Positions 14,852-57,799 of a stretch of 64,000 bases of DNA are shown one piece after another (within the stretch, counting starts at the first letter, position 1; the number at the start of each line of letters is the position of its first letter). The notes below the pieces were generated by a model. It ran no database searches. It was not told the DNA's origin and saw only the letters and a list, made by a program, of their open reading frames with translations. Source of the DNA: Candidatus Omnitrophota bacterium. Lineage in GTDB: Bacteria > Omnitrophota > Gorgyraeia > Gygaellales > Profunditerraquicolaceae. The translations under genes and the position numbers were made by a program. The stretch spans positions 388,322-452,321 of the forward strand of contig JAQUQW010000001.1 of assembly GCA_028716245.1 (NCBI GenBank), read 5' to 3'.

Positions 14852-14880
14852 TTGACACTGTAACGTTTTGCTGTTATTAT
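14852..14880 (+). promoter_or_regulatory. sigma-70 promoter for hup (TTGACA-17-TATTAT)
   Basis: Exact -35 hexamer, 17-nt spacer, near-consensus -10; predicted TSS just before the conserved leader motif. Confidence 0.55.
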
Positions 14881-14893
14881 ACTTAGCAAATAC

Positions 14894-14931
14894 ACCCGCG
14901 TTGCGCGGGTACGCCCTTGTGGGCTAGGAGG
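14894..14931 (+). promoter_or_regulatory. conserved 5'-leader motif copy 1 (CCCGCG-ttg-CGCGGG-tac-GCCC-ttgt-GGGC-t-AGGAGG)
   Basis: Two tandem hairpins ending in the SD 8 nt before the hup ATG; near-identical copies at 17823-17876 and 57384-57473. Confidence 0.5.
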
Positions 14932-14938
14932 ATTTAAA

Positions 14939-15211
14939 ATGACCAAAAAGGATATTGTCTTAAAAGTATCTGACGACAGCAATTTAAAACAAATAGACGT
15001 CAAGGAAGTAGTGCAAAAGACCTTCGATTGTATCGTTGAGGCTTTAGTCAGGGGCGAAAAGATTGAATTACGTAATTTCGGTGTTTTTAAAGTAAAACAA
15101 AGAAAAAGCCGCACTGGCAGAAATCCGCGCACTAATCAGGTTATCCCTGTCCCGCCAAGAAAAGTTGTCATCTTCAAAGCTGGCTTGGAAATGAAACAAA
15201 AAATAAAATAA
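14939..15211 (+). CDS. hup: DNA-binding protein HU
   Basis: 90 aa; conserved HU arm GRNPRTNQ.I..P and an N-terminal MTKKDIV-type start. Confidence 0.85.
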   Translation: MTKKDIVLKVSDDSNLKQIDVKEVVQKTFDCIVEALVRGEKIELRNFGVFKVKQRKSRTGRNPRTNQVIPVPPRKVVIFKAGLEMKQKIK

Positions 15212-16449: not shown

Positions 16450-17837
16450 GGACTCATACCTGCGCCCAGCTCAATGCCGCTGATACTGGAAAACTGGTTA
16501 CGCTTTGCGGCTGGGTTGCCAATCGGCGCGACCACGGCAAGTTAATCTTTATTGATATCCGCGACCGCTACGGCCTCACCCAGGCCGTCTTTATCCCCAA
16601 AGAATCAGGGGAAGCTCATAAATTGGCGCAAGAACTAAGGAGTGAATTCGTAATTAAATTAAGCGGCCTGGTAAATAAGCGGCCGGCCGGAACCATTAAT
16701 CCAAAATTAGCAACCGGAGAAGTAGAAATTTTAGCTAAAGAGCTGGAAATATTGAATCCCAGCAATACCCCGCCGTTTGAAATCCAGGATGATATTGAAA
16801 TAACCGAAGAGATCCGCCTTAAATACCGCTACCTTGATTTAAGAAGAAGTAAAGTTTTTAAAAACCTGCTCTTACGAAGCAATCTCTATAAAGTTATCCG
16901 CTCTTATTTAGGAAACAAAGATTTCATCGAGTGCGAAACTCCGATACTGACCAAATCCACCCCTGAAGGCGCCCGGGATTATCTGGTCCCTTCACGATTA
17001 AGCATCGGCCAATTTTTTGCCCTTCCTCAATCTCCGCAATTATTCAAACAGATCCTGATGGTTGCCGGAATTGAAAAGTACTATCAGATTGCCAAATGTT
17101 TCCGCGATGAAGACCTGCGCGCCGACCGCCAGCCGGAATTTACCCAGCTGGATATCGAAATGTCCTTTATCAACCAGGAAGATATCTTTTCTTTAACTGA
17201 AGGATTAATGAAAATTATTTTCAAGGAATTAAAAAACATAGATCTACCCGCTCCATTTACCCGAATAAGCTATAAAGATGCCCTGGAAAAATATAAATCG
17301 GATAAACCTGACTTACGGCCTGAAACAAAAACAGAATTCGCTTTCTGCTGGATAGTGGATTTTCCGCTTTTCAAATTCAACGCCGAAGAAAAACGCTGGG
17401 AAAGCGAACATCATCCTTTTACCGCACCGAACGCCCAAGACCTTCCAAACCTGAAAGAATCCCCGGATAAAGTAAGATCCTGCTCATATGATTTGGTTTT
17501 AAACGGTATGGAACTGGGTTCAGGATCAATAAGGATCCACCGTCCGGAGCTTCAAGAAAAAATCTTTAAGATTATCGGTATAGACAAGGAAGAGGCCGCT
17601 AAACGTTTCGGCTTCCTGCTGGAGGCTTTTACATTCGGGGCGCCTCCCCATGGAGGGGTCGCTTTTGGGCTAGACAGGCTCTTAGCCATACTTTGTGCGG
17701 AATCAAGTATACGTGAAGTCATTACTTTTCCTAAAACCTCGGCCGCGTTCTGCCCGTTAACTAACGCGCCTTCGGATGTTGCAGATAAGCAATTAAAAGA
17801 ACTGGGTATAACCATTATTAACACCCCGCGCTCATAA
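16443..17837 (+). CDS. aspS: aspartyl-tRNA synthetase, short form lacking the GAD insertion domain
   Basis: N-terminal OB fold, bacterial-type QSPQLFKQ and FRDEDLRADRQPEFTQLD motifs, motif 3 GAPPHGGVAFGLDRL; only 464 aa. Confidence 0.8.
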   Translation: MLRTHTCAQLNAADTGKLVTLCGWVANRRDHGKLIFIDIRDRYGLTQAVFIPKESGEAHKLAQELRSEFVIKLSGLVNKRPAGTINPKLATGEVEILAKELEILNPSNTPPFEIQDDIEITEEIRLKYRYLDLRRSKVFKNLLLRSNLYKVIRSYLGNKDFIECETPILTKSTPEGARDYLVPSRLSIGQFFALPQSPQLFKQILMVAGIEKYYQIAKCFRDEDLRADRQPEFTQLDIEMSFINQEDIFSLTEGLMKIIFKELKNIDLPAPFTRISYKDALEKYKSDKPDLRPETKTEFAFCWIVDFPLFKFNAEEKRWESEHHPFTAPNAQDLPNLKESPDKVRSCSYDLVLNGMELGSGSIRIHRPELQEKIFKIIGIDKEEAAKRFGFLLEAFTFGAPPHGGVAFGLDRLLAILCAESSIREVITFPKTSAAFCPLTNAPSDVADKQLKELGITIINTPRS

Positions 17838-17876
17838 GGAATTGCGCGGGTACGCCCTTGTGGGCGAAAGGAGGGA
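17823..17876 (+). promoter_or_regulatory. conserved 5'-leader motif copy 2
   Basis: CACCCCGCG...GCGCGGGTACGCCCTTGTGGGCGAAAGGAGGG; the aspS stop codon lies in the loop of stem 1; 6 nt before ATG 17883. Confidence 0.5.
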
Positions 17877-17882
17877 AGTAAA

Positions 17883-18422
17883 ATGGACGGATTTAGATTA
17901 GCAGGAATTTGCGTATTGGCATCGACAATGGCACTATCAGGATGCGTGGCCAGGACCTACAACTTAACCCGCGATAGAGTTGACCAGGATTTATCTTCCG
18001 CCTCAGGAAACCGCGGTTACCTTACTGGCCAGGCCCCTGAACCAAAAGAAAGAGCAACTACCCGCACCGTCAGAGTCTTTGAGATAGAATTAGGAAAAAC
18101 TAAAAAATCTAATGTCAGCTGCCCGGCAACTACCCCACTAGGAACTAATATCGAAGAATCGACCGCCGGTCTTCAGGAAACGCTAAGCGAACCGGCCCAG
18201 GGCTTTGAGAAATACTCGGTAGCCAAAAACGATACCTTACAAAAAATTTCTAAAAAATTTTATGGCACAACCAAAAAATGGATGAAGATTTATAATGCCA
18301 ATAAAAATGTTTTATCCGCTCCGGACAAACTTTATCCCGGGCAAACTTTAAATATCCCTTCTGCCCCCGCATCAAAAACTGGAACTGAAAAAACGGCAGA
18401 AATAAAAGAAAACCTCAAGTAA
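17883..18422 (+). CDS. LysM-domain lipoprotein
   Basis: Lipobox LSGC; C-terminal LysM (YSVAKNDTLQKISKKFYGTTKKWMKIYNANKNVL...LYPGQTLNIP). Confidence 0.6.
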   Translation: MDGFRLAGICVLASTMALSGCVARTYNLTRDRVDQDLSSASGNRGYLTGQAPEPKERATTRTVRVFEIELGKTKKSNVSCPATTPLGTNIEESTAGLQETLSEPAQGFEKYSVAKNDTLQKISKKFYGTTKKWMKIYNANKNVLSAPDKLYPGQTLNIPSAPASKTGTEKTAEIKENLK

Positions 18423-35376: not shown

Positions 35377-36924
35377 ATGTTAAATCTTGCCTTTATCTTT
35401 CATATGCACCAGCCGTATTATAAGGACCTCTTAACGCAAGAGAGTGATCTTCCCTGGGTCAGGTTACACGGCGTTAAGGATTACCTGGATATGGTACAGA
35501 TCCTGGAAAAATTCCCTAAGATCAAACAAACCTTTAATGTTGTGCCGTCTTTATTCGAGCAGGTCGAAGATTATAATAATGGAAAAGTAAGCGATAAATA
35601 TCTTGAGTTAAGTAAAAAACCGGCAGCGGAATTATCCAAACATGATCAGGAATTTGTCCTGCAGAATTTCTTTTCCATAAACAACGAAAAAGTGATCTCC
35701 ACTTTTCCGCGTTATTACCAACTCCACTTCAAAAAACACCATCGCCTGGAATTCTTGACCCAGGATTACCTGGACTTGCAGCTTTTGTTTAATCTGGCCT
35801 GGATCGATCCGTCTTTCCGGCAGAATATCCCTGAACTTAAAAAAATAGTCTTAAAGGAAAGATTCTTTAATGAACAGGATAAGGCAACTGTCCTGGATAA
35901 ACAGTTAAGCATCTTAAAAGAAATTATCCCTGCCTACTGCCTTTTTAAACAGAATAACCAGATTGAGATCAGCGTTACTCCTTATTATCATCCCATCTTG
36001 CCGCTTCTTTGCTCGACGAACACCGCCAAAGAAGCAAACCATAAAACAATCTTGCCCAAAGAAGAGTTTCGCTATCCGCAAGACGCAAAAGATCAAATTG
36101 ACAGCGCAGTAAAATATTATCGGGAGAGGTTTGGCTGTCCGCCGCACGGTATGTGGCCGTCGGAAGAAGGAGTAAGCGAAGAGATCCTGCCGTTTATTAT
36201 TAAATCCGGGATAAAGTGGGTAGTTACCGACGAGGCAATTTTATTTAAATCTTTAAAGATAAAAAAACGTGACACTAAGCTCCTTTATCAGCCTCACCTG
36301 TTAAAAAGGAAGGAGGGGGAGCTGAATATTGTTTTTCGCGACCGCAACCTCTCGGATTTAATCGGTTTCTCTTATCACAAGATGAAAGAAACTGAGGCGG
36401 TAAATAACTTTATGGCGCATTTGGAAAATATCCACAAAACCTTCAAAAACAAGGATATCCTGGTAACCGTAGCCATGGACGGAGAAAACGCCTGGGAATA
36501 TTTCCGCAATGACGGCCATGATTTCCTGGAATTATTTTATAAACATCTATCCGAAGCGCCTTTTGTAAAAACTACCACCGTCAGCGAATATTTAAAAAAT
36601 AACCCGCCGGAAAAATCAGAAATAAAACACTTAAGCGCGGGCAGCTGGATCTATGGAGAATTCGGCAAATGGATCGGCAGCCCCTATAAAGTAAAAGCCT
36701 GGGAGTGGCTGACGCAGGCGCGCAAAGCAATAAAAGAAACTAAAGAACCAGGCGAGCTGGCCTGGAAGCAAATGTATATCTTAGAGGGCAGTGATTGGTT
36801 CTGGTGGGCAGGAGAAGACCCGGATGGCTCATTTGACCGGCTGTTCAGGCTGCACCTGACTAACTTTTATAAGCTAATTGACAAAGAGCCGCCGGCATAT
36901 CTCTCCAAGCCCTTAACCCCTTGA
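35377..36924 (+). CDS. glycoside hydrolase family 57 (alpha-glucan branching/amylase type)
   Basis: GH57 N-terminal signature FHMHQPYY and a typical 515-aa length. Confidence 0.85.
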   Translation: MLNLAFIFHMHQPYYKDLLTQESDLPWVRLHGVKDYLDMVQILEKFPKIKQTFNVVPSLFEQVEDYNNGKVSDKYLELSKKPAAELSKHDQEFVLQNFFSINNEKVISTFPRYYQLHFKKHHRLEFLTQDYLDLQLLFNLAWIDPSFRQNIPELKKIVLKERFFNEQDKATVLDKQLSILKEIIPAYCLFKQNNQIEISVTPYYHPILPLLCSTNTAKEANHKTILPKEEFRYPQDAKDQIDSAVKYYRERFGCPPHGMWPSEEGVSEEILPFIIKSGIKWVVTDEAILFKSLKIKKRDTKLLYQPHLLKRKEGELNIVFRDRNLSDLIGFSYHKMKETEAVNNFMAHLENIHKTFKNKDILVTVAMDGENAWEYFRNDGHDFLELFYKHLSEAPFVKTTTVSEYLKNNPPEKSEIKHLSAGSWIYGEFGKWIGSPYKVKAWEWLTQARKAIKETKEPGELAWKQMYILEGSDWFWWAGEDPDGSFDRLFRLHLTNFYKLIDKEPPAYLSKPLTP

Positions 36925-36959
36925 CATAGATAGGGTTTTGTGTTATAAGATATATTCAA

Positions 36960-37532
36960 ATGAATAAGAAAGAAATCTACGAACATCTGGCGAATATTTA
37001 TCTGGATGCCTCTTCTAAATCATCAAAGAAAAAAAATAAATTCAGCCCTTATCCTAAAGCAATATGGGGCATCGTAATTTTGGGATTGGTAACCGCCTTA
37101 GGTTTAGGCAGCGCGGTTACTTATTTCCATATTAATAACCGCAGTCCCAAAGGGCAAATCGCCTTATTTTTATATCAAGATTCGGCTAAAATAAATTTTA
37201 ACTTTGATCCCGCCAAAAGAGAAACTTTTTCCATCAACCTTAAACAATTAAATTTATCCAAATATAAAGCCTTGGCCTTTAGCGTAAGAAAAACTAACTC
37301 TAAAGATATAATTTCATTAAGGGTGGAATTTATTAACCGCTTTAATGAAAAATCCGAAGTTTACGTGAAAGATATTTCCGGTAAATGGACGCAGGAAAAC
37401 TTGGATTTTAGCCGTTTTGCTAAAATGAACGACTGGACCCAGATGAAGGCATTGGCTTTTAGCATTGAAGAATGGAACGCCCGCGAAAAATCAGGCATAG
37501 TTTATCTTGATAATATAAAGGTAATCAAATAA
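36960..37532 (+). CDS. membrane-anchored protein with internally repeated beta-rich ectodomain (possible carbohydrate-binding module)
   Basis: Basic N-terminus, one TM, two repeats (KYKALAFSVRK / QMKALAFSIEE); ends in a CBM-like ..IVYLDNIKVIK. Confidence 0.35.
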   Translation: MNKKEIYEHLANIYLDASSKSSKKKNKFSPYPKAIWGIVILGLVTALGLGSAVTYFHINNRSPKGQIALFLYQDSAKINFNFDPAKRETFSINLKQLNLSKYKALAFSVRKTNSKDIISLRVEFINRFNEKSEVYVKDISGKWTQENLDFSRFAKMNDWTQMKALAFSIEEWNAREKSGIVYLDNIKVIK

Positions 37533-37547
37533 TAAGAAGGAGGATGA

Positions 37548-38642
37548 ATGCGCATAATTTCAATTGCTAATCAAAAAGGCGGCTGCGGCAAAACAACTAC
37601 ATCCATAAATTTAGCTGCCTCACTGGCATCCAATAGCCGCCGCGTCCTGCTTATTGATCTTGACCCGCAAGCCCATGCCACCAGCGGCTTAAACATCAAA
37701 GCGGAATTAAGTATCTACAATGTCCTTTCTAAAATCACGCATAAAAAAGCAAGGATTGACGAAATTATCCAGAACATCGGAGTTAATTTTGATATCGCCC
37801 CATCTTCGATTATTTTAAGCACGCTGGAACAGGAGTTAAGCGGTGAAATCGGAAGAGAGAGCCGCCTTTGGGATATCTTAAAAAGTTTTCAGAACAACTA
37901 CGATTACATTTTAATCGATTGCCCTCCAAACCTGGGGATCCTGACCATTAACGCCTTGCGGGCGGCAAACGAAATTATTATTCCGGTTGAAGCCAGCAGG
38001 TTCTCCTTAGAAGGGGTAAGCCAGTTAACCAGCATTATTAACCTGGTCAAAGAAAGGTTAAACCATAGCGTGGATTTCCGGATCCTGGTAACCAACTTTG
38101 ATTCCCGGCTGCAGCATTCGTTTAAAATGCTTGAGAAAATCAAGACTGACTACAAAAACAGAATGTTCTCTAACATTATCCACGTGAATGTAAAATTAAA
38201 GGAAGCCCAAAACGAAGGCCTGCATATACATGTTTACGATAAATACTGCCGGGGGGCAAAAGATTATTTCTCGCTTTCCCGTGAAATTATCACCCAGGAA
38301 AATACGCCTCCTGCGCCTGTTCCGCCAACAGAAAAAAACCTGGAAAAACGCATGCAAGATATCCTTAAGGAGAACCTGCCAAAATTAAATGAAACTGTTC
38401 TTTCGGTTAAAGCTCCTGATGCAAAAGAAGTTTATTTGGCGGGAGAATTCAACAACTGGAAGCTTGATGAACACAGCCGCATGGAGCAGAATAACGGCTG
38501 TTGGACCAAACACCTGGCCTTAAATAAGGGTAAATACCGTTACCGTTTCGTAATCGATGGAAATTGGGCCGAAGACCCGGAGAACCCATCAAGGCAAATG
38601 AATGCTTACGGCACCATGGATTCGTTGATTGAAATTAATTAG
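37548..38642 (+). CDS. ParA/MinD-family ATPase fused to a C-terminal CBM48 (AMPK-beta glycogen-binding) domain
   Basis: Deviant Walker A KGGCGKTTT and ParA body (about 250 aa), a Pro-rich linker, then CBM48 signature VYLAGEFNNWK...GKYRYRFVIDGNWAEDPENP. Confidence 0.75.
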   Translation: MRIISIANQKGGCGKTTTSINLAASLASNSRRVLLIDLDPQAHATSGLNIKAELSIYNVLSKITHKKARIDEIIQNIGVNFDIAPSSIILSTLEQELSGEIGRESRLWDILKSFQNNYDYILIDCPPNLGILTINALRAANEIIIPVEASRFSLEGVSQLTSIINLVKERLNHSVDFRILVTNFDSRLQHSFKMLEKIKTDYKNRMFSNIIHVNVKLKEAQNEGLHIHVYDKYCRGAKDYFSLSREIITQENTPPAPVPPTEKNLEKRMQDILKENLPKLNETVLSVKAPDAKEVYLAGEFNNWKLDEHSRMEQNNGCWTKHLALNKGKYRYRFVIDGNWAEDPENPSRQMNAYGTMDSLIEIN

Positions 38643-38666
38643 CAGGTAAAAAATAGGAGAGTTAGT

Positions 38667-38993
38667 ATGTCTGCTCTGGAAAATGAACAAGAGATACGTG
38701 ATGGAAAATTTTTTGCCATAATTTCGTACGTTTCTTTTCTGTGCATCATTACTTTAATCTTAAAAAAAGACAATAAATTCGCCCTTTATCATGCTAAGCA
38801 GGGGCTGGTGCTTTTTGTAATGGAAGTTGTGGCATTTATACTTTCGATTATACCTTTATTAGGCTGGTTAATCGGAGTTCTTGGGTATGCGTTATTCCTG
38901 CTGGTTTCTCTATGGGGAATTATGCAGGCTTTTCTGGGTATTTACTGCCGGATCCCGGTTATAACTAAGATATCTGAGAAAGTCGTCATCTAA
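38667..38993 (+). CDS. small integral membrane protein (DUF4870-like)
   Basis: 108 aa with 2-3 TM helices; strong RBS AGGAGAG. Confidence 0.45.
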   Translation: MSALENEQEIRDGKFFAIISYVSFLCIITLILKKDNKFALYHAKQGLVLFVMEVVAFILSIIPLLGWLIGVLGYALFLLVSLWGIMQAFLGIYCRIPVITKISEKVVI

Positions 38994-39004
38994 GCAAGGA
39001 GGGC

Positions 39005-39415
39005 TTGTCAATGGCTTTAAAAAAGTTGAGCACCAATAAAAAAATAGCGAAATCCTCGCGCTTAGCGCGAGGAAAAAAGAAAATTACCAAAAAAGCTGTT
39101 AAAAAAACCAAAAAGAAACTGATCAAGAAGATGCCTGTAGCCAAGAAAAAACCGGCTGCTAAGAAAAAAGAAGGCAACCTTATCGGCACAGTCACGCATT
39201 ATTTTCCCCATGTGCAAGCCGCGGTAATCAAATTAAAAGGGCCTCTGGCAATGGGAGATACGGTAAAAATAAAAGGGCACACCACCGACCTTACCCAGGC
39301 GGTAACTTCAATGCAAATCGACCGGGTAGTGATTTCAAATGCCAAAAAAGGGGATGAAATCGGGCTGCAGGTAAATTCCCGGGTCAGGCAAGGCGATAAA
39401 ACTTATAAATTATAA
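39005..39415 (+). CDS. lysine-rich histone H1-like N-terminal tail fused to an EF-Tu domain-2-like beta-barrel
   Basis: N-terminal 60 aa are KKAVKKTKKKLIKK-type repeats; C-terminus shows a GTV...GD.VKIKG....GDEIGLQV pattern like translation-factor domain II. Confidence 0.4.
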   Translation: MSMALKKLSTNKKIAKSSRLARGKKKITKKAVKKTKKKLIKKMPVAKKKPAAKKKEGNLIGTVTHYFPHVQAAVIKLKGPLAMGDTVKIKGHTTDLTQAVTSMQIDRVVISNAKKGDEIGLQVNSRVRQGDKTYKL

Positions 39416-39517
39416 CTTCTAAGGGCCTGTTAAGCACAAAGCAGGCCCTAAAAAACGCCTATTTATAAGTAGGTACTCATAATAAATACGGCGTTAAACT
39501 TGGGTAAATCTAGGTAA

Positions 39518-39844
39518 ATGCGCTTGCGAGGAAGGCCGAAAAAATACAGGATAGTCAAAGTTGACCCTAAAATCAGCTATTTTAGCCCTAGAGGCCGGCC
39601 GGGAAGGCCTGATGAAGTCCAGATAAAAATGGATGAATTTGAGGCCTTAAGGCTGGCTGATTACCAAGGATTAGGCCAAAAAGAATCAGCCAAGTCTATG
39701 CGCATATCCCAGCAAACCTTTAGCCGGATATTAAAGAAGGCGCGCAAGCAAGTAGCTAAGGGAATTACTACCGGATCAACCATAAGAATCCAGGGTGGCC
39801 AATACGTGTTGCTTCCCGGGAGCAGAAATGAGAAAATTAGCTGA
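39518..39844 (+). CDS. DUF134/UPF0251 family predicted DNA-binding protein
   Basis: Characteristic N-terminus RGRPKK...V...P....F.P and C-terminal HTH (ESAKSMRISQQTFSRILKKAR). Confidence 0.7.
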   Translation: MRLRGRPKKYRIVKVDPKISYFSPRGRPGRPDEVQIKMDEFEALRLADYQGLGQKESAKSMRISQQTFSRILKKARKQVAKGITTGSTIRIQGGQYVLLPGSRNEKIS

Positions 39845-40670
39845 CTTAACTAAGGAAAAGTTAATCGATTTATATCTAAATGAAAGAAAATCCTTGGGTG
39901 ATATAGCTAAAATCTATAGCGTTTCCCGGACAGCAATATATAAAAAACTTAACACTCATGGTATAAAACAACGCTCTAAATCAGAGGCAAGAATTGAAGC
40001 GCAGAAACAAAATAAGGTTCCACAGCAATTTTATGATATAGATGAGGATTTTTTCAGTACTTGGTCACCTGAAATGGCGTACGTTTTTGGCTTAATTCTT
40101 ACTGATGGATGTATTTCTGATAACGGAGTGATATCGCTTTGTATAAACGACAGAGAATTACTAGAAAAGGTTAAAAAAGCATTGCAATCCGAACATAAAA
40201 TAACACTGTCTAAGCATCAAGAAGGCTTGCATTATTTTCATTTTGCCAGGGAAAAACTTGTGGCGGACTTAGCAAAACTTGGTGTTTTACCCAGAAAAAG
40301 TCTTACGGTCAAATTCCCAAAGATTCCAGAAAGCTTCCTAGTTGATTTCATAAGAGGAGTTTTTGATGGCGATGGAAGTGTTTTCTTTGATAAACGCCGA
40401 ATAAACTGTCCATTAAGGTCTAAATTTGTTAGTGGCTCCTGTGATTTTATAGCCGGTTTACAACAAAAGTTAGAATCTTTGAATATGCCCGAAAGAACAA
40501 TCTATAAACAAAAAACCAAAAATGGATGGAGTTATATGTTTATATATGATCATAAAGATAGCTTAAAGTTATTTGAAATTTTATATAAAAATATCCAAAA
40601 TAAGCTATTTTTAGAACGCAAATATAGGCGGTTTTTAGAAGGTATAAAAGGCATTAAGGCAAAAACATAG
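39828..40670 (+). CDS. free-standing LAGLIDADG homing endonuclease with N-terminal HTH
   Basis: Two LAGLIDADG motifs (FGLILTDGCI and FIRGVFDGDGSV) after an HTH (SLGDIAKIYSVSRTAIYKKL); start moved to ATG 39828 (RBS GGGAGCAG); visibly AT-rich versus neighbours. Confidence 0.7.
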   Translation: MRKLADLTKEKLIDLYLNERKSLGDIAKIYSVSRTAIYKKLNTHGIKQRSKSEARIEAQKQNKVPQQFYDIDEDFFSTWSPEMAYVFGLILTDGCISDNGVISLCINDRELLEKVKKALQSEHKITLSKHQEGLHYFHFAREKLVADLAKLGVLPRKSLTVKFPKIPESFLVDFIRGVFDGDGSVFFDKRRINCPLRSKFVSGSCDFIAGLQQKLESLNMPERTIYKQKTKNGWSYMFIYDHKDSLKLFEILYKNIQNKLFLERKYRRFLEGIKGIKAKT

Positions 40671-40693
40671 GGAAATAAGCAAGGAGGTTTTTT

Positions 40694-40990
40694 ATGAATA
40701 CCCAAATAGAATTAGAATATTTAAAACAACTAACTCAAAAATACGGTAGCCGCTATATAAAGAGTTATTTTGGTTTTACTATGAGAGATTTTGCAAGAAG
40801 AATGGGCATTGCAGATAATACTTTTAGCCAAATATTAAAAGGCGTACGTAAAATGCAGGAGAAATATGAACAAGCATTCTTACAGGCTTTTAAAGATTTG
40901 CAGGTAGAGGAAAAATCAAAGGGTTTCAAAGAAACCCCAAATCAGGTACAAATGAAACAGCTCTATCAAAAAAAGAACAGCTTATTCTGA
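40694..40990 (+). CDS. small HTH-containing hypothetical protein
   Basis: 98 aa; RBS AAGGAGG; HTH-like FTMRDFARRMGIADNTFSQILKG; AT-rich. Confidence 0.4.
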   Translation: MNTQIELEYLKQLTQKYGSRYIKSYFGFTMRDFARRMGIADNTFSQILKGVRKMQEKYEQAFLQAFKDLQVEEKSKGFKETPNQVQMKQLYQKKNSLF

Positions 40991-41666
40991 ATACAGGACA
41001 TCTTTGGGAACTGGATATAATATATCTTATGTTAACTTGTCTATCTTGGCTAAGTGTACTTAACCCTATATGAGACAATAAGTTATTAAGAGATGTTTTT
41101 AACCTGTGGAAAAGGTAATTCTTGTTTACTTAAACTTACCGCTTTATTTTATTCCTAACAATTCAGGCAAAATTTATGAATCATCTTCCCTGGATTTTTT
41201 GCTTTTAATTAAAGATTTTATTTATGAACCTGGCCGGGTTAAAACAGTAATTGCGGGATAAATTGACCTCTCTCCGAAGCGGTTATTAACGCGGTCTAGA
41301 GCCTAAATAAGGCCTTCCCTGCGGATTTCTTCCTAAGTAAACTATTAAGAGATGCCCATAGCAAGTGACCCCGATTGCCCGATTTCCGGGCCGTTTAGCC
41401 AAAGATACACCACATTGCGCTGACTAAATTTTGCTGCCTGAGCCTTGTAGCCACCATTTCAGACAACAGCCTGATCCAAGCTGGATAACCTGGGGGTTTA
41501 TTTGAGCTCTAGGTAAAGTATATGGATGGCTGATTGACTTGGGTTTTCACTGGACTTACCGGAACTTTCCTCAAACTTACCACAGTTACCATAACTCTCA
41601 TTAAAAAAATGCAGTAATGTTAAAGTTTGCACAGATTCTCTCGTGGAATTATCATCTGATCCATAT

Positions 41667-42270
41667 TTAATATTTCCTGATTACGGTGATGAGCTTGCCG
41701 ATTACCTCAAACTCTTCAAAGATTGGCGCGTAATTTGGATTAGCCGCTTCTAAATGAAACTTACCGGCTTTACTGCGCAGCCTTTTTAAAGTCACCTCAT
41801 TATTGTCTAAAAGTGCGGCAACTATATCATTATTGTCGGCATGGGGGCGTTTCTTGATAATGGCAATATCGCTATCTAGTATCCCGGCATCAATCATGCT
41901 GTCGCCTTTAACCTTTAAAGCGAAAACATCATCAAAACCCAGGCGGCCAAGAAATAAATCATCAGCATCAACATAACCCTGAATTTCTTCATAAGCTAAA
42001 TCCGGCTTACCGGCCATGATCGTACCGATTATGGGAATTTTAAAAGACGCGCGCTGCGTTAACCCGATTGCCCGTGATTTATTATTCATCCGCCTCACCA
42101 AACCTTTCTGTATTAGGGCCTTTAAATAGTCCCTGACTGTCCCGGTAGATTTAAACCCCAGCTCCTCTCCTATTTCTCTAATTGTAGGAGGGAGCCTCTC
42201 CCCTATCCGTTTGCGGATAAAATTAAGCACCTTTTCCTGCTTTGGCGTCAAATACGGCTTCTTTTCCATG
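41667..42270 (-). CDS. lexA: LexA repressor (SOS regulator, S24 peptidase)
   Basis: N-terminal wHTH (LTPKQEKVLNFI...GEELG), Ala-Gly cleavage site (IMAGKPD), Ser/Lys dyad (GDSM...KRL); start set to the internal Met MEKKPYLT rather than the track start 42290. Confidence 0.85.
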
Positions 42271-42282
42271 GCTATAGATATA

Positions 42283-42298
42283 CCACACATTTGTGTGG
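42283..42298. promoter_or_regulatory. candidate LexA operator: perfect palindrome CCACACA-TT-TGTGTGG
   Basis: Seen in sequence 13 nt upstream of the lexA start; autoregulated lexA genes typically carry their own operator here. Confidence 0.45.
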
Positions 42299-42333
42299 TT
42301 TGTCAAGAAAAATTAAAGGGGCGCCTCTAAAAT

Positions 42334-42381
42334 AAAGGGGACGGTTCTATTCCTTGGTTAAAAAATAGAACCGTCCCCTTT
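42334..42381 (-). terminator. REP-like hairpin copy C (AAAGGGGACGGTTCTAT-loop-ATAGAACCGTCCCCTTT)
   Basis: 17-bp stem with A/T-rich flanks, between the zinc-ribbon sORF and lexA on the minus strand. Confidence 0.55.
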
Positions 42382-42389
42382 ATTCTTAT

Positions 42390-42554
42390 TTAACGGCTTT
42401 GCCCCTTGCTCTTTTGATAACACTCTCTGCATAATATCGGTTTGCCGCCCTCTCTGGGTTTAAAAGGCACTTCGCATTCTTTTTTGCACTCTGCGCAAAT
42501 TGCCTTGTGCATTTCCCGGGGCCCGCCAAATCCACCACCTTGTTGATACGCCAT
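42390..42554 (-). CDS. 54-aa zinc-ribbon protein (CxxC-x17-CxxC)
   Basis: Below the 60-aa track threshold; translated by hand: MAYQQGGGFGGPREMHKAICAECKKECEVPFKPREGGKPILCRECYQKSKGQSR; perfect SD AAAGGAGGAAAC before the ATG; hairpin follows. Confidence 0.55.
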   Translation of the reverse strand: MAYQQGGGFGGPREMHKAICAECKKECEVPFKPREGGKPILCRECYQKSKGQSR

Positions 42555-42620
42555 GTTTCCTCCTTTTAGTTACTTAAATAATTATATAACTTTCTAAAAT
42601 AATCTCAAGTATTTTTAGTA

Positions 42621-42653
42621 AGGGGCTGGATAATCAAATCCAGCCCCTTTTTT
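42621..42653 (+). terminator. hairpin AGGGGCTGGAT-aatcaa-ATCCAGCCCCT plus TTTTT
   Basis: 11-bp stem with T-tract on the plus strand and A-tract on the minus; sits after the msrBA/sORF unit (minus) and could act in both directions. Confidence 0.5.
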
Positions 42654-42670
42654 AACCTATACAAATAAAC

Positions 42671-42727
42671 TTATTTCTTTTTCTTCTTTGCCTTTTTCTT
42701 CGGTTTCTTGCAGCTTCCGCAGCTCAT
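42671..42727 (-). CDS. 18-aa lysine-rich sORF (MSCGSCKKPKKKAKKKKK), possible micropeptide or leader
   Basis: Consensus SD AAAGGAGGTG 5 nt upstream, placed directly after the msrBA TGA stop; hand-translated. Confidence 0.25.
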   Translation of the reverse strand: MSCGSCKKPKKKAKKKKK

Positions 42728-42739
42728 ACCCACCTCCTT

Positions 42740-43639
42740 TCATCTTTTAGGTATATGGCAAGCCGGCTTTAAACCGTGTTTTATATAATAATCCTGATGA
42801 TAGCCTTCAGCTTTATAGAAATCTCCGGCTGCGATAATTTCGGTGGTAATCGGCTTTTTGTATCTGCCGGATTTCTCCAGCTTCTCCTTGGAAGCCAAGG
42901 CCGATTTTTTCTGCTCAGGCGTGTAATAAAATATCACTGAACGATACTGGCTGCCGATATCCGGGCCCTGTTGGTTTGGCGTGGTAGGATCATGGATATC
43001 CCAGAAAATATCCAGCAGCTTCTCATAAGCAACAACCTGAGGGTTAAACTCTAGCTCTACCGTTTCCGCATGCCCGGTCTTATCCGTACAGACATCTGCA
43101 TAACTGGGATTTTTCAGTTTTCCACCAGCGTAACCAGCTGTAGTTTTAACCACGCCTTTTATTCCTGTAAATGCTGCCTGGACGCCCCAGAAACATCCGG
43201 CGGCAAAAGCAGCTTTTTCGAGTTCTTCTTTTTTCGGCAGATTAATTTTGGCAAATTTAAGCGCTGCCGCATTAATACAATAACGTTTGCCGGTTGGCGG
43301 CGGGCCATCGTCAAAAACATGGCCCAGATGCGCGTCGCAACGGGCGCAAAGCACTTCCACCCTGGATGCCCCCAAAGTATTATCGATTCGTGTTTTGATA
43401 TTTAATTCAGAAACCGGTTCCCAGAAACTCGGCCAGCCGGTGCCGGATTCAAATTTGGTAGTAACTAAAAATAAATCCGTGCCGCAACAAATGCATTTAT
43501 ATACACCCTGCTCATTCTTCTTGGGCAGAACGCAGTGGCCGCTAAAAGGTACTTCCGTTACTTTAAGCCTGGTAACCCTGTATTGTTCAGGAGTAAGGAT
43601 CTTCTTCCATTGGGCATCGGTTTTATAGACCCGCTCCAC
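42740..43639 (-). CDS. msrAB: bifunctional peptide methionine sulfoxide reductase MsrB-MsrA
   Basis: N-terminal MsrB (two CxxC pairs, RYCINAAAL) and C-terminal MsrA (GCFWG); the track start is a GTG. Confidence 0.85.
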
Positions 43640-43766
43640 TTCCTCAACTTGGCCGTTGCAAGATTAAAGATTTTAACCTTTTCTGGTTCTTTTGAAGAAA
43701 CTTCCATCTGCCCTCCAAGTAACAATATAAATCCAACTAACATCACAATTATACTGCTATACTTAT

Positions 43767-44189
43767 TCATCTTTTGACTTTACGCGGCGCCACCATTTTT
43801 GCATCCTTTAAAACATCATACATAAAACTGATCATGGATATTTCCGTTTTGGGTATTTCTTCATTTATTTTATTTACGCCATAATCCAGAGCCCTGACAG
43901 TACGGAAACTATCGGTTACGGTTATAACCACCGCTTCGTTTCTTTCTAATTCCTTGATCCCTTCAAGAACAAACATAAGTTTCTGGTATTCGGTCAGCTG
44001 ATTCCAGTTTTTATTAGTAAGTTTATAGCCATCCCATTTTGCCTGGGCCTTAGGAAAAAAACAAATATGCGGGGTCTGGTTATACCGGTAAATATTGCCT
44101 GAATTTTTAATACCCGGACCGGATGTTGAAGCGCAGCCGTTTAACAGGAATACTGCGGTTAAAACAGAAATCACCGATCCTATTTTCAT
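43767..44189 (-). CDS. lipoprotein, hypothetical
   Basis: Lipobox LLNGCAS; 140 aa. Confidence 0.45.
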   Translation of the reverse strand: MKIGSVISVLTAVFLLNGCASTSGPGIKNSGNIYRYNQTPHICFFPKAQAKWDGYKLTNKNWNQLTEYQKLMFVLEGIKELERNEAVVITVTDSFRTVRALDYGVNKINEEIPKTEISMISFMYDVLKDAKMVAPRKVKR

Positions 44190-56788: not shown

Positions 56789-57235
56789 TTAGTTCTGGTT
56801 TTCGATTGAGACTAGGCTCAGCTCATCCCCAACCTGCTTGGCAGTAACGGTTACCTGTAACTTGCTGTCAGCTACTTTAAGAAACTCTGCAACTTTGGCG
56901 TTGGAATTTTTATCGAATTTGTAAAGCTTGCCGTCTGCAAAAATAGAATAACCACTCTCAATGCATCCGGGTTTTAAAGCACACTCCTTGGTATGTGTCT
57001 TGACAAATTCAGCCAGAGTGTCTTTATTAGCGCCTGCGCACATATTGTCGATAACATCGCCCTTTAACGTCAAAACTTCAGGAGTAACGGCAACTGTAGT
57101 CGCAGTAGCGGTTGTCGCAGCTGTAGCCTCAGTAGCAGTTGTAGCAGCAGGCACAGCGGTATCCTCAGCAAAAGCTAAAGAGCTTACAAAACAAAAAGCA
57201 ATAAGCACAAAAAATATCTTTTTCATTTTATTCAC
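56789..57235 (-). CDS. secreted Thr/Ala-rich protein with a Cys-containing C-terminal domain, hypothetical
   Basis: Signal peptide; low-complexity ATTATEATAATTATATT linker; 148 aa. Confidence 0.45.
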   Translation of the reverse strand: MNKMKKIFFVLIAFCFVSSLAFAEDTAVPAATTATEATAATTATATTVAVTPEVLTLKGDVIDNMCAGANKDTLAEFVKTHTKECALKPGCIESGYSIFADGKLYKFDKNSNAKVAEFLKVADSKLQVTVTAKQVGDELSLVSIENQN

Positions 57236-57349
57236 CTCCTTTCATTTAATTAAATTTTGAAACAAAAAATGGAAACAATTTCTATAATCATAACAAGGTG
57301 ATTGCCGCCTGTCAATAAATAAAATGCCGCCATCAAAAAAGTAAAATTA

Positions 57350-57376
57350 TTGACAGGCAATCAATTGTGGTATAAT
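57350..57376 (+). promoter_or_regulatory. sigma-70 promoter (TTGACA, extended -10 TGgTATAAT)
   Basis: Exact hexamers; the -35 lies inside an inverted repeat TTGCCGCCTGTCAATAA...TTATTGACAGGCAA. Confidence 0.55.
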
Positions 57377-57383
57377 TAATTGT

Positions 57384-57473
57384 CACCCCGCACTATAAGG
57401 CGCCCGGCGCAATAGGTATGCGCTTAGCATGCGCTTGTGCGCTAGCGCGGGTGTGCCCTTGTGGGCTAGGAGG
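57384..57473 (+). promoter_or_regulatory. conserved 5'-leader motif copy 3 (extended version)
   Basis: CACCCCGC...GCGGGTGTGCCCTTGTGGGCTAGGAGG with extra internal palindromes (GCGCTAGCGC; GCGC-TTGT-GCGC). Confidence 0.5.
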
Positions 57474-57478
57474 CCGAA

Positions 57479-57799
57479 ATGAATAAAATCTGCATTATTC
57501 TGCTGTTTATCGCCTTAAATCTCTTAGTTACCAATACTCCTGCCAAAGCAAACAATGATAATTCAAATCAACAAAAACCTCCTAGCGGCATGGAAATTAT
57601 AACTGTCGGAGATGGTCAACAGTTAATTCTCCCTAAAGGGACAAAGATGCGTAAAATAGGCGCCCAATTAATTATTGAGGACAATGCCGAATACGTATCG
57701 GAACGAATTTGGGATTTAGAGAAGCGCATAAAGAGATTGGAATCAGCCAATGAAGAACTTAAAAAACAGATACAGGAATTGAAAAATCCAGCCCCCTAA
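57479..57799 (+). CDS. secreted coiled-coil protein, hypothetical
   Basis: Signal peptide; C-terminal heptad-repeat segment (RIWDLEKRIKRLESANEELKKQIQELK). Confidence 0.5.
   Translation: MNKICIILLFIALNLLVTNTPAKANNDNSNQQKPPSGMEIITVGDGQQLILPKGTKMRKIGAQLIIEDNAEYVSERIWDLEKRIKRLESANEELKKQIQELKNPAP

Follow-up and report, generated by a model that had tools for sequence, protein, structure and literature searches.

A candidate dispersed RNA module of about 45 nt, joined to the Shine-Dalgarno sequence, in Omnitrophota

Introduction

The bacteria of the phylum Omnitrophota are uncultured, ultra-small and probably dependent on hosts, and to our knowledge nothing has been established about the control of gene expression in them. 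A stretch of 64,000 nt from a Candidatus Omnitrophota bacterium (contig JAQUQW010000001.1; hereafter, the window) raises a question in this field: the genes for the nucleoid protein HU (hup), a LysM lipoprotein and a secreted coiled-coil protein are each preceded by the same two hairpins and, directly after them, by a Shine-Dalgarno sequence (SD). What is this element, and what might it do for the genes that it precedes? An earlier note on the window had described a conserved structured leader, and had read it as a possible switch or thermosensor shared by HU and two envelope or secreted proteins. The searchable literature contains no relevant report of a structured RNA, stem-loop, riboswitch or hairpin in Omnitrophota, and the genomics papers on the phylum that were consulted are silent on intergenic motifs; the module is apparently undescribed so far.

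The three sites in the window

The core CGCGGGT-RY-GCCCTTGTGGGC is found in three copies in the window, where 0 are expected by chance. The 21-mer CGCGGGTRYGCCCTTGTGGGC lies at 14904-14924, 17845-17865 and 57446-57466, on the + strand in all three cases, and AGGAGG stands 1-4 nt past each core, followed by an ATG. A fourth match to the 21-mer was absent from the window at up to 3 mismatches, and 100 shuffles gave 0. The scan with a covariance model, suggested in the earlier note as a check, was run with filters off: the window yields just the three known copies, at 70.3, 43.6 and 34.4 bits (the next-best match reaches 11 bits), and the collected loci yield many more. These three copies, together with the covariation across the family described below, bear out the claim of a conserved structured module ending at the SD.

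In its simple form, the consensus of the module is aaUA-ACAC-C-CCGCGC-UUAUAAGGAAUU-GCGCGGGUGU-GCCC-UUGU-GGGC-A-AGGAGG-N5-9-AUG. The first hairpin, P1, comprises 10 bp (ACAC-C-CCGCGC / GCGCGGGTGT), a single bulged C and a 12-nt loop, UUAUAAGGWAUU. The second, P2, has 4-5 bp and a loop that is mostly UUGU, and directly abuts P1. In the nested form, the P1 loop holds further copies of the module, and modules are also found in tandem. Site 2 is a canonical module, site 3 a nested copy whose inner module has decayed, and site 1 a derivative without the loop and the bulge.

Site 2 is the top window match of model R1 (70.3 bits). Its canonical P1 (17823..17851, + strand) extends from the pair A17823-T17851, with the bulged C and, at 17832-17843, a loop of 12 nt; both the 5' arm and this loop fall within the 3' end of aspS, so that the aspS stop codon TAA (17835-17837) is part of the loop. 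P2 follows at 17853..17866 (+) as C-GCCC-TTGT-GGGC-G, of 5 bp, and is succeeded by the SD AGGAGGG (17869-17875) and the ATG of the LysM lipoprotein gene (17883-18422), the whole initiation segment covering 17869..17885 (+). No promoter was found at site 2.

At site 1, the promoter scan predicts a sigma-70 promoter for hup (TTGACA, 17 nt, TATTAT; 14852..14880, +), which is conserved among syntenic relatives both with and without the module. The exact TATAAT previously assigned to this site has to be corrected to TATTAT, a -10 box ending 13 nt before P1, and the predicted transcription start lies about 5-7 nt upstream of P1. This P1 (14894..14910, +) is a loop-deleted derivative, ACCCGCG / TTG / CGCGGGT, with 7 bp and no bulge; in a more distant relative (L120), the orthologous position before hup carries a full-length P1. 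P2, GCCC-TTGT-GGGC, occupies 14913..14924 (+), and the SD AGGAGG (14926-14931) and the ATG at 14939 complete the segment (14926..14941, +). The hup gene itself (14939-15211, +) matches Pfam PF00216 with E = 1.6e-29.

Site 3 is preceded by promoter-like boxes (TTGACA, a 15-nt spacer and TGnTATAAT; 57350..57376, +), which were read by eye and are uncalled by a scan requiring a spacer of 16-18 nt; a start predicted from them would fall roughly at P1. The outer P1 (CACCCCGC / GCGGGTG, with the bulged C; 57384..57453, +) encloses the decayed inner module (57392-57446), whose inner P2', GCGC-TTGT-GCGC, is still recognisable at 57431-57442. Homologous nested copies exist in two of the collected loci (L036 and L138). 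The fold consistent with the family has -39.7 kcal/mol, against -43.0 for the minimum free energy (MFE) fold. P2, again GCCC-TTGT-GGGC, lies at 57455..57466 (+), and the SD AGGAGG (57468-57473) leads to the ATG of a gene (57479-57799) that encodes a secreted coiled-coil protein of 106 aa, with the initiation segment at 57468..57481 (+). As to the loop lengths of the first hairpin, the values of 3 and about 55 nt given earlier stand, and the intermediate one, given as 13 nt, becomes 12 nt once the full 10-bp P1 is recognised.

Both site 1 and site 2 carry the rare variant GGGTAC (GGGUAC in the RNA), a resemblance between the two sequences that points to intragenomic copying. Taken singly, the sites do not fold significantly better than dinucleotide shuffles (z = -0.8 to -1.9); the evidence for structure is the covariation found across the family.

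The family in Omnitrophota

A genome scan with one genome per species, using the core with two positions free, gave 86 stretches. After G+C-rich chance or unrelated matches had been dropped, 74 copies in low-GC contexts were kept, from 38 assemblies, 34 of them labelled Omnitrophota or Omnitrophica and 4 labelled "uncultured Planctomycetales". An independent scan of metagenome contigs, anchored on the other half of the module (5' arm and loop), added 100 stretches, in which the 3' arm of P1, the P2 hairpin and the SD appeared again, with a freely variable P2 sequence. The census comprises 198 non-redundant uncut copies. A covariance model trained on 51 copies retrieved 85 from the first set of loci and 122 from the second, diverged ones included. 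The best homologs of the window's HU also come from Omnitrophota metagenome-assembled genomes (MAGs).

Several matches were set aside. Thirteen copies of the 21-mer in one Acidobacteriota MAG lie inside an unrelated identical repeat and were judged unrelated, and the single matches of the 21-mer in G+C-rich actinobacterial and other contigs were judged unrelated or due to chance. The viral contig collection gave 0 matches for two anchors, so that no carriage by phages was seen.

The module very probably represents a real, conserved and structured family, and the three sites of the window are best read, from their sequences, as copies of a dispersed, co-transcribed RNA module of about 45 nt belonging to the Omnitrophota.

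Secondary structure and covariation

In the copies aligned by the model, 97% of the cells are paired, and 11 of the 14 pairs show changes on both sides, a result equalled by 0 of 500 shuffles. When 194 distinct copies are pooled, every one of the 14 pairs occurs as at least two Watson-Crick types. P2 illustrates this best, with GCCC/GGGC, GUGC/GCAC, GCAC/GUGC, GCCU/AGGC, GUGU/ACAC and GCGC/GCGC among its variants. Moreover, a test comparing matched with mismatched duplexes gave z = -19 for the arms of P1 and z = -17 for the halves of P2.

Other features are kept at the level of sequence or spacing. The bulged C of the P1 5' arm is retained in 191 of the 194 copies and the linker between P1 and P2 is zero in 179; the P1 loop has 12 nt in 131 copies and contains a nested insert in 26. 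The loop and the lower stem are conserved beyond what pairing needs, although this statistic is partly biased by the search anchors. As an indicator of the functional strand, the mismatches within the stems proved uninformative: G.U (51) and A.C (43) are equally frequent and give no RNA-strand signal, for which reason the strand assignment rests on the co-orientation of the module with genes.

Known RNA families do not account for the module. With Rfam 15 at gathering score, a tRNA alone passes in the whole window, and at E <= 10 the surroundings of the three sites give chance-level matches far under gathering, with no ribozyme or other family. Ribosomal protein leaders are likewise absent at the gathering threshold, the best being L31-Firmicutes with 15.2 bits against 33.3. 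An intrinsic terminator was also rejected: P2 is followed by (A/U)AGGAGG and not by a U-run, and the scan calls no terminator at the three sites.

Position of the module relative to genes

An SD, a start codon and an ORF come directly after 152 of the 198 copies (77%). In 120 of these 152, the SD is offset from P2 by 1 nt, and in 125 the start codon lies 11-14 nt beyond P2. The orientation of gene-linked copies is always that of the downstream gene. The other copies mostly belong to nested or tandem arrays, as inner or upstream members. These arrays are direct and not inverted, and all of those inspected terminate in an SD and a gene; a stand-alone multi-module RNA acting as a sponge was thus not seen among them. 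Some 15-18 of the 198 copies have neither SD nor gene after them, and in about 8 of these an A-run and another hairpin come next, which is a 3' UTR position. In several SD-less copies, the hairpin after the A-run would be the terminator of a convergent gene.

Towards the upstream side, 63 of 88 copies (about 72%) stand just after a same-strand ORF of at least 60 codons. The upstream stop codon overlaps the first base of P1 in 16 copies and lies inside the P1 loop in 10, as at site 2. The module is therefore mainly intercistronic and not tied to transcription starts, and the earlier placement of the start on the first base of the first hairpin does not hold for the family. A provision of stop codons in all three frames was also considered and rejected, since it is general only for the UAA of the loop, TAA before P1 and TAG before the SD each being found in a minority.

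The genes served had been thought to be those of HU and envelope proteins; the family instead precedes a broad range of highly expressed housekeeping genes. They include, for translation, elongation factor EF-Tu (tuf) and the ribosomal proteins S3, S6, S8, S20, L6, L20 and L35, the module being present even inside the normally tightly packed ribosomal protein operons. DnaK (Hsp70), GroES (Cpn10), HU, the acyl carrier protein ACP (acpP), a cold-shock protein (cspA, CSD), ATP synthase subunit c (atpE), enolase (eno), PEPCK, ClpP, RpoD (sigma-70), MetK and P-II belong to the set as well, and so do many secreted proteins and lipoproteins. The module is found preferentially in front of the most highly expressed genes. 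At hup it is common, since many publicly available HU gene calls begin with an N-terminal extension translated from P2 and the SD.

Gene callers extend ORFs through the module, which provides the last codons and the stop of some upstream genes.

Among the genes of the window with a strong SD, a structured G+C-rich upstream segment is found at the three module sites only; elsewhere in the window, leaders that end in an equally strong SD are AU-rich and unstructured. This genome thus has no general habit of placing hairpins beside the SD, and, since such unstructured leaders with a strong SD are common in the window, the module is unnecessary for a good ribosome binding site (RBS). Nor does the module depend on the replication strand in the window: the left half, in which the + strand shows positive GC skew and is presumably leading, contains sites 1 and 2, and the right half, with negative skew, contains site 3, before a + strand gene. 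A 16S rRNA was sought in the collected loci to look for complementarity to the loop, and none was present.

Gain and loss among relatives

Syntenic relatives of the window (dnaE-hup-hisS-aspS-lysM-phoH...), with 72-76% nucleotide identity to it, contain no copy of the module in 66 kb. At hup, they keep the promoter and the segment from SD to ATG, and the module is missing; between aspS and lysM, one relative has overlapping stop and start codons and no module; and at groES, a CIRCE element is directly followed by the SD. As the same promoters and SDs are found at hup, lysM and groES in relatives without it, the module is dispensable. L120, which is more distant (69% identity), has the full module before hup.

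Elsewhere, orthologous genes keep the module across species but alternate between simple and nested forms, and L138 contains near-identical tandem units. Between genomes that share 67-72% identity in the flanking DNA, and just 69% in a syntenic comparison, copies of the module still agree at about 91%. No target-site duplication was found when filled and empty sites were compared at hup and at aspS-lysM. Absence at the same sites in syntenic relatives, together with the nested and tandem copies, characterises the module as a dynamic dispersed element.

Possible functions of the module

The preferred reading, to which we give a probability of roughly 0.45 and which is accordingly held as tentative, is that the module acts as a cistron-boundary and RBS-presentation element. 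The mechanism that may be proposed starts from a very stable P1-P2 stack sitting between the upstream stop codon (or the 5' leader) and the SD. All of the G+C-rich sequence would be locked in the module's own helices, leaving the strong SD single-stranded at the foot of the helix and exposed independently of whatever sequence precedes the module. The same stack might block exonucleases as well as scanning or read-through ribosomes, and the outcome would be a high, context-independent expression of the downstream gene. The module itself would be gained and lost through duplication or recombination at the DNA level. That loop, bulge and lower stem are conserved in sequence suggests a further partner acting in trans, which could be the 30S subunit, a protein or an RNase. 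Counting against a boundary and RBS role are the dispensability of the module in relatives, the many strong SDs of the window that do without it, and site 1, where neither the conserved loop nor the bulge is left. A tall hairpin beside the SD also tends, in E. coli, to lower the binding of the 30S subunit and not to aid it. Furthermore, a purely translational role leaves the SD-less copies in 3' UTRs unexplained.

A bolder version, which we regard as unlikely on balance, would have the 30S subunit of the Omnitrophota, or an RNA-binding factor specific to the phylum, dock on the module in a sequence-specific manner; as a dedicated docking site, the module would mark and co-control the core set of highly expressed genes (tuf, ribosomal proteins, chaperones and HU). 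P2 would then stack on the helix formed by the SD and the anti-SD, and the partner would read the conserved loop and bulge. Were it true, the module would be a bacterial counterpart of IRES-like recruitment or TOP-type regulation, portable and capable of being copied before new genes.

The SD-less copies would be easier to understand if the module were a processing signal, at which a conserved endoribonuclease cuts polycistronic or leader RNA at or near the junction of P1 and P2; P1 would then protect the 3' end of the upstream product and P2 the 5' end of the downstream one, and copies in 3' UTRs fit such a protection of ends. The mainly intercistronic location, straight after stop codons, the abutting of the hairpins with zero linker, the concentration of conservation in the lower stem, the bulge and the junction, and the variable distance from predicted promoters to the module are all in line with this. 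P1 and P2 together, however, make just 14 stacked bp, and classical RNase III substrates are longer than that; moreover, the strict 1-nt spacing to the SD is not needed by a processing model. We consider this explanation rather doubtful.

The partner might also be one of regulation. A global post-transcriptional operator, comparable with CsrA targets and with the eukaryotic TOP mRNAs, would be bound at its loop and bulge by a phylum-specific RNA-binding protein or by the ribosome, and would co-regulate core growth genes. Such an operator would account for a loop, bulge and lower stem conserved past pairing needs, for a module far more conserved than the flanking DNA, for a gene set made up of the translation, chaperone and central-metabolism core, and for leaders with several modules, which would offer several binding sites. 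Site 1 is again difficult to accommodate, as it has no loop and bulge and keeps the remainder. As regards CsrA, the obligatory GGA is not conserved in the loop: in a sample that is partly loop-anchored, all 131 loops have the second G, whereas the third position is filled by A in 85 and by U in 46. One GGA is supplied by the SD, and UUGA is a frequent sequence of inner loops. No stand-alone sponge RNA was seen among the arrays inspected, and the same genes in close relatives do without the module. Our analysis makes this operator quite unlikely.

The module might instead be a dispersed repeat of the REP, MITE or BOX kind, either selfish or neutral, with hairpins serving DNA mobility and a position that reflects nothing but tolerated insertion. 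This is suggested by its presence or absence at orthologous sites, by the nested and tandem copies with the near-identical units of L138, by the GGGTAC variant common to sites 1 and 2 and by wobble counts without an RNA-strand signal. Several observations count against this reading: gene-start copies are all oriented with the gene and have the SD fixed at 1 nt, they show no replication-strand dependence in the window, and they are enriched before the most highly expressed genes. In addition, orthologous genes retain the module, its consensus survives between genomes with about 70% DNA identity, and compensatory changes occur within individual copies. The viral contigs have no copies. As to its ends, the inverted repeat formed by the P1 arms fails to bracket the unit, because P2 lies outside it, and no target-site duplication appears in the filled-versus-empty comparisons; a Correia-like MITE was rejected on these two grounds, the second at hup and at aspS-lysM. 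Pure selfishness or neutrality is therefore held to be very unlikely.

Finally, the conformational switch or thermosensor, with two mutually exclusive folds gating the SD, has energetic arguments in its favour. The alternative fold (fold B) pairs the 5' arm and loop (CCCC..GCUUAUAAGG) with P2 and the SD (CCUUGUGGGC..GGAGG); in the consensus it is 3 kcal/mol less stable than the family fold (-21.9 versus -24.9), and it becomes the MFE when site 2 is folded with long flanks. Evolution has nevertheless not maintained it, with z = 0.0 and +1.1 for its pairings versus -19 and -17 for P1 and P2, and P2 varies freely while the P1 loop is constant. Its predicted pairing probability is 0.001-0.002 at 10 to 55 °C, and P1, being transcribed first, should be the kinetic product too. 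The exclusive pairing which had been pointed out earlier, between GGG of the P1 3' arm and CCC of P2, shows 0 changes on both sides, which equals shuffles; a thermosensor is unlikely as well, for the SD lies outside both helices and the consensus fold and the pairing probabilities of P1 and P2 are unchanged from 10 to 55 °C. This family of explanations is, in our judgement, highly improbable.

Comparison with known elements

A likeness in behaviour is offered by the dispersed palindromes of other bacteria. In enterobacteria and pseudomonads, the REP/BIME elements are imperfect palindromes, short and G+C-rich, which form clusters and sit in transcribed intergenic DNA, often after stop codons within operons; their stems are kept by compensatory change and act as barriers that stabilise segments of mRNA. 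The module resembles them in being a multi-copy short imperfect palindrome, with about 200 copies collected and covarying stems. REP/BIME, however, are found in either orientation and frequently as inverted pairs, stand in no fixed relation to an SD, are specific to a species or genus and are tied to RAYT transposases, whereas the module follows the orientation of the downstream gene, has its SD 1 nt past P2 and is found in at least 38 species-level genomes.

Correia elements in Neisseria, ERIC in Yersinia and the enterobacteria, and BOX and RUP in the pneumococcus are also dispersed, structured, co-transcribed with their neighbours and modular or nested; their presence is polymorphic between strains, and they alter the stability or the expression of adjacent genes. 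They are 100-150 bp or longer, with terminal inverted repeats, some target-site duplications and a variable orientation. The module, in contrast, has about 45 nt, no bracketing inverted repeats, no duplication in two comparisons and a fusion to the SD.

In its position, the module recalls the stabilisers of 5' UTRs, such as those of E. coli ompA, B. subtilis aprE and ermC, and the Stab-SD of cryIIIA: one or more stable hairpins upstream of a strong SD, on very abundant mRNAs, and portable between genes. The P1 loop even carries an SD-like UAAGGA, which is reminiscent of Stab-SD. These stabilisers are, however, leaders of single genes with the key hairpin at the very 5' end, while the module is multi-copy and about 72% operon-internal. 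The intercistronic RNase III signals of phage T7, the plastid sites of the PPR10 type and the synthetic insulators (RiboJ, Csy4 hairpins) are similar in being structured units between cistrons, ahead of the RBS, which uncouple the downstream cistron from its upstream context and protect the RNA ends created. The helices of the module are shorter than RNase III substrates, and its processing is a proposal.

The occurrence of the module before rpmI and rplT, rpsF, rpsH and rpsT calls to mind the autoregulatory leaders of ribosomal proteins (L20, S6:S18, S8 and S20 types); unlike these, the same module also precedes dozens of non-ribosomal genes. Strict orientation, the fusion to the SD at 1 nt and recursive nesting set it apart from REP, ERIC, Correia, BOX and the stabilising leaders.

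Significance

A structured unit of about 45 nt fused to the SD of the genes for EF-Tu, DnaK, GroES, HU and ribosomal proteins is unusual for bacteria. The module has practical consequences for annotation and is a good candidate for a new Rfam family. If the proposed role as a cistron-boundary and RBS-presentation element is true, it would represent a natural, portable "insulated RBS", useful as a part in synthetic biology, and would provide an experimental handle on translation initiation and operon architecture in the Omnitrophota.

Variant forms of the module

In addition to the simple and nested forms, a third form of the module was found at L131:4439-4515 and L132:725-801, two loci from other genomes or metagenome contigs, in which an extra perfect hairpin (CCUGCCUGCCGGCAGGCAGG) lies within the 3' arm of P1, opposite the C-run bearing the bulged C, and owing to this insertion a three-way junction replaces the simple P1. 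Each of two modules about 1.1 kb apart (L074:874-930 and L074:1956-2012) stands before its own GTG-started small ORF, with MKRERERELK.. as the N-terminus in both cases; one of the two ORFs, of 70 aa, was read to its end, is Cys/Ser-rich in its C-terminal part and resembles a peptide-precursor gene.

Presence and absence at groES and aspS-lysM

A CIRCE inverted repeat (TTAGCACTC-N9-GAGTGCTAA) was found upstream of groES at L086:3615-3720 (- strand), where the order is CIRCE, module and SD, and at L187:1470-1550, a relative's locus in which CIRCE is present and the module absent. At the place of window site 2, the closest relative (L190:5925-5990) carries two small, unrelated G+C hairpins, one (GCCC-UGC-GGGC) within the end of aspS and the other GCCCG-UGAUAU-CGGGC, followed by the same SD as at site 2. 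This pair may represent either remnants of the module or independent structures.

Matches on contigs not assigned to Omnitrophota

The 21-mer core common to the three window sites occurs in 13 copies in one Acidobacteriota MAG (CBDEGM01; L009, L011, L014, L015, L020, L032, L045, L058, L061, L062, L069, L080 and L083), each within a G+C-rich repeat that is otherwise identical and has unrelated flanks; this repeat is probably a multi-copy gene or an IS element rather than the module. Furthermore, a complete P1+P2 copy lacking the SD is present at L051:5187-5243, where the flanking GC is 0.56; its contig has been assigned to a Deltaproteobacteria bin, and the copy could reflect either a mis-binned contig or horizontal transfer.

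Surroundings of the module in the window

At site 3, the promoter-like sequence upstream of the module stands back to back with a near-consensus divergent promoter on the - strand (57287-57315; TTGACA, 17 nt, TATGAT, with TG ahead of the -10 box), which points toward a - strand gene (56789-57235) whose product is a secreted, Ala/Thr-rich protein of 148 aa with no match in Pfam. On a larger scale, the sign of the GC skew flips near 40 kb, and the long ORFs lie nearly all on the + strand until ~40.7 kb and nearly all on the - strand beyond ~41.7 kb; since genes and GC skew converge there, the region 36000-44000 looks like a replication terminus.

The module and coding sequences

The module also contributes to protein ends. 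At 17820-17837 the aspS reading frame runs out (..N T P R S stop) within the module's 5' arm and loop, which supply its final codons. As with aspS, the upstream ORF stops at the UAA of the P1 loop in 10 of the 88 family copies, and the proteins ending there therefore carry a ..TPR(L/S)-type tail that derives from the module. At the other side of the module, HU homologs are 98-113 aa long in public gene calls (P0002, P0010, P0012, P0015, P0016, P0031, P0036, P0037 and P0041) rather than 90 aa. Many residues of these N-terminal extensions are translated P2 and SD (e.g. VCPGGQGGSE-M), an artefact that the module has introduced into the annotation.
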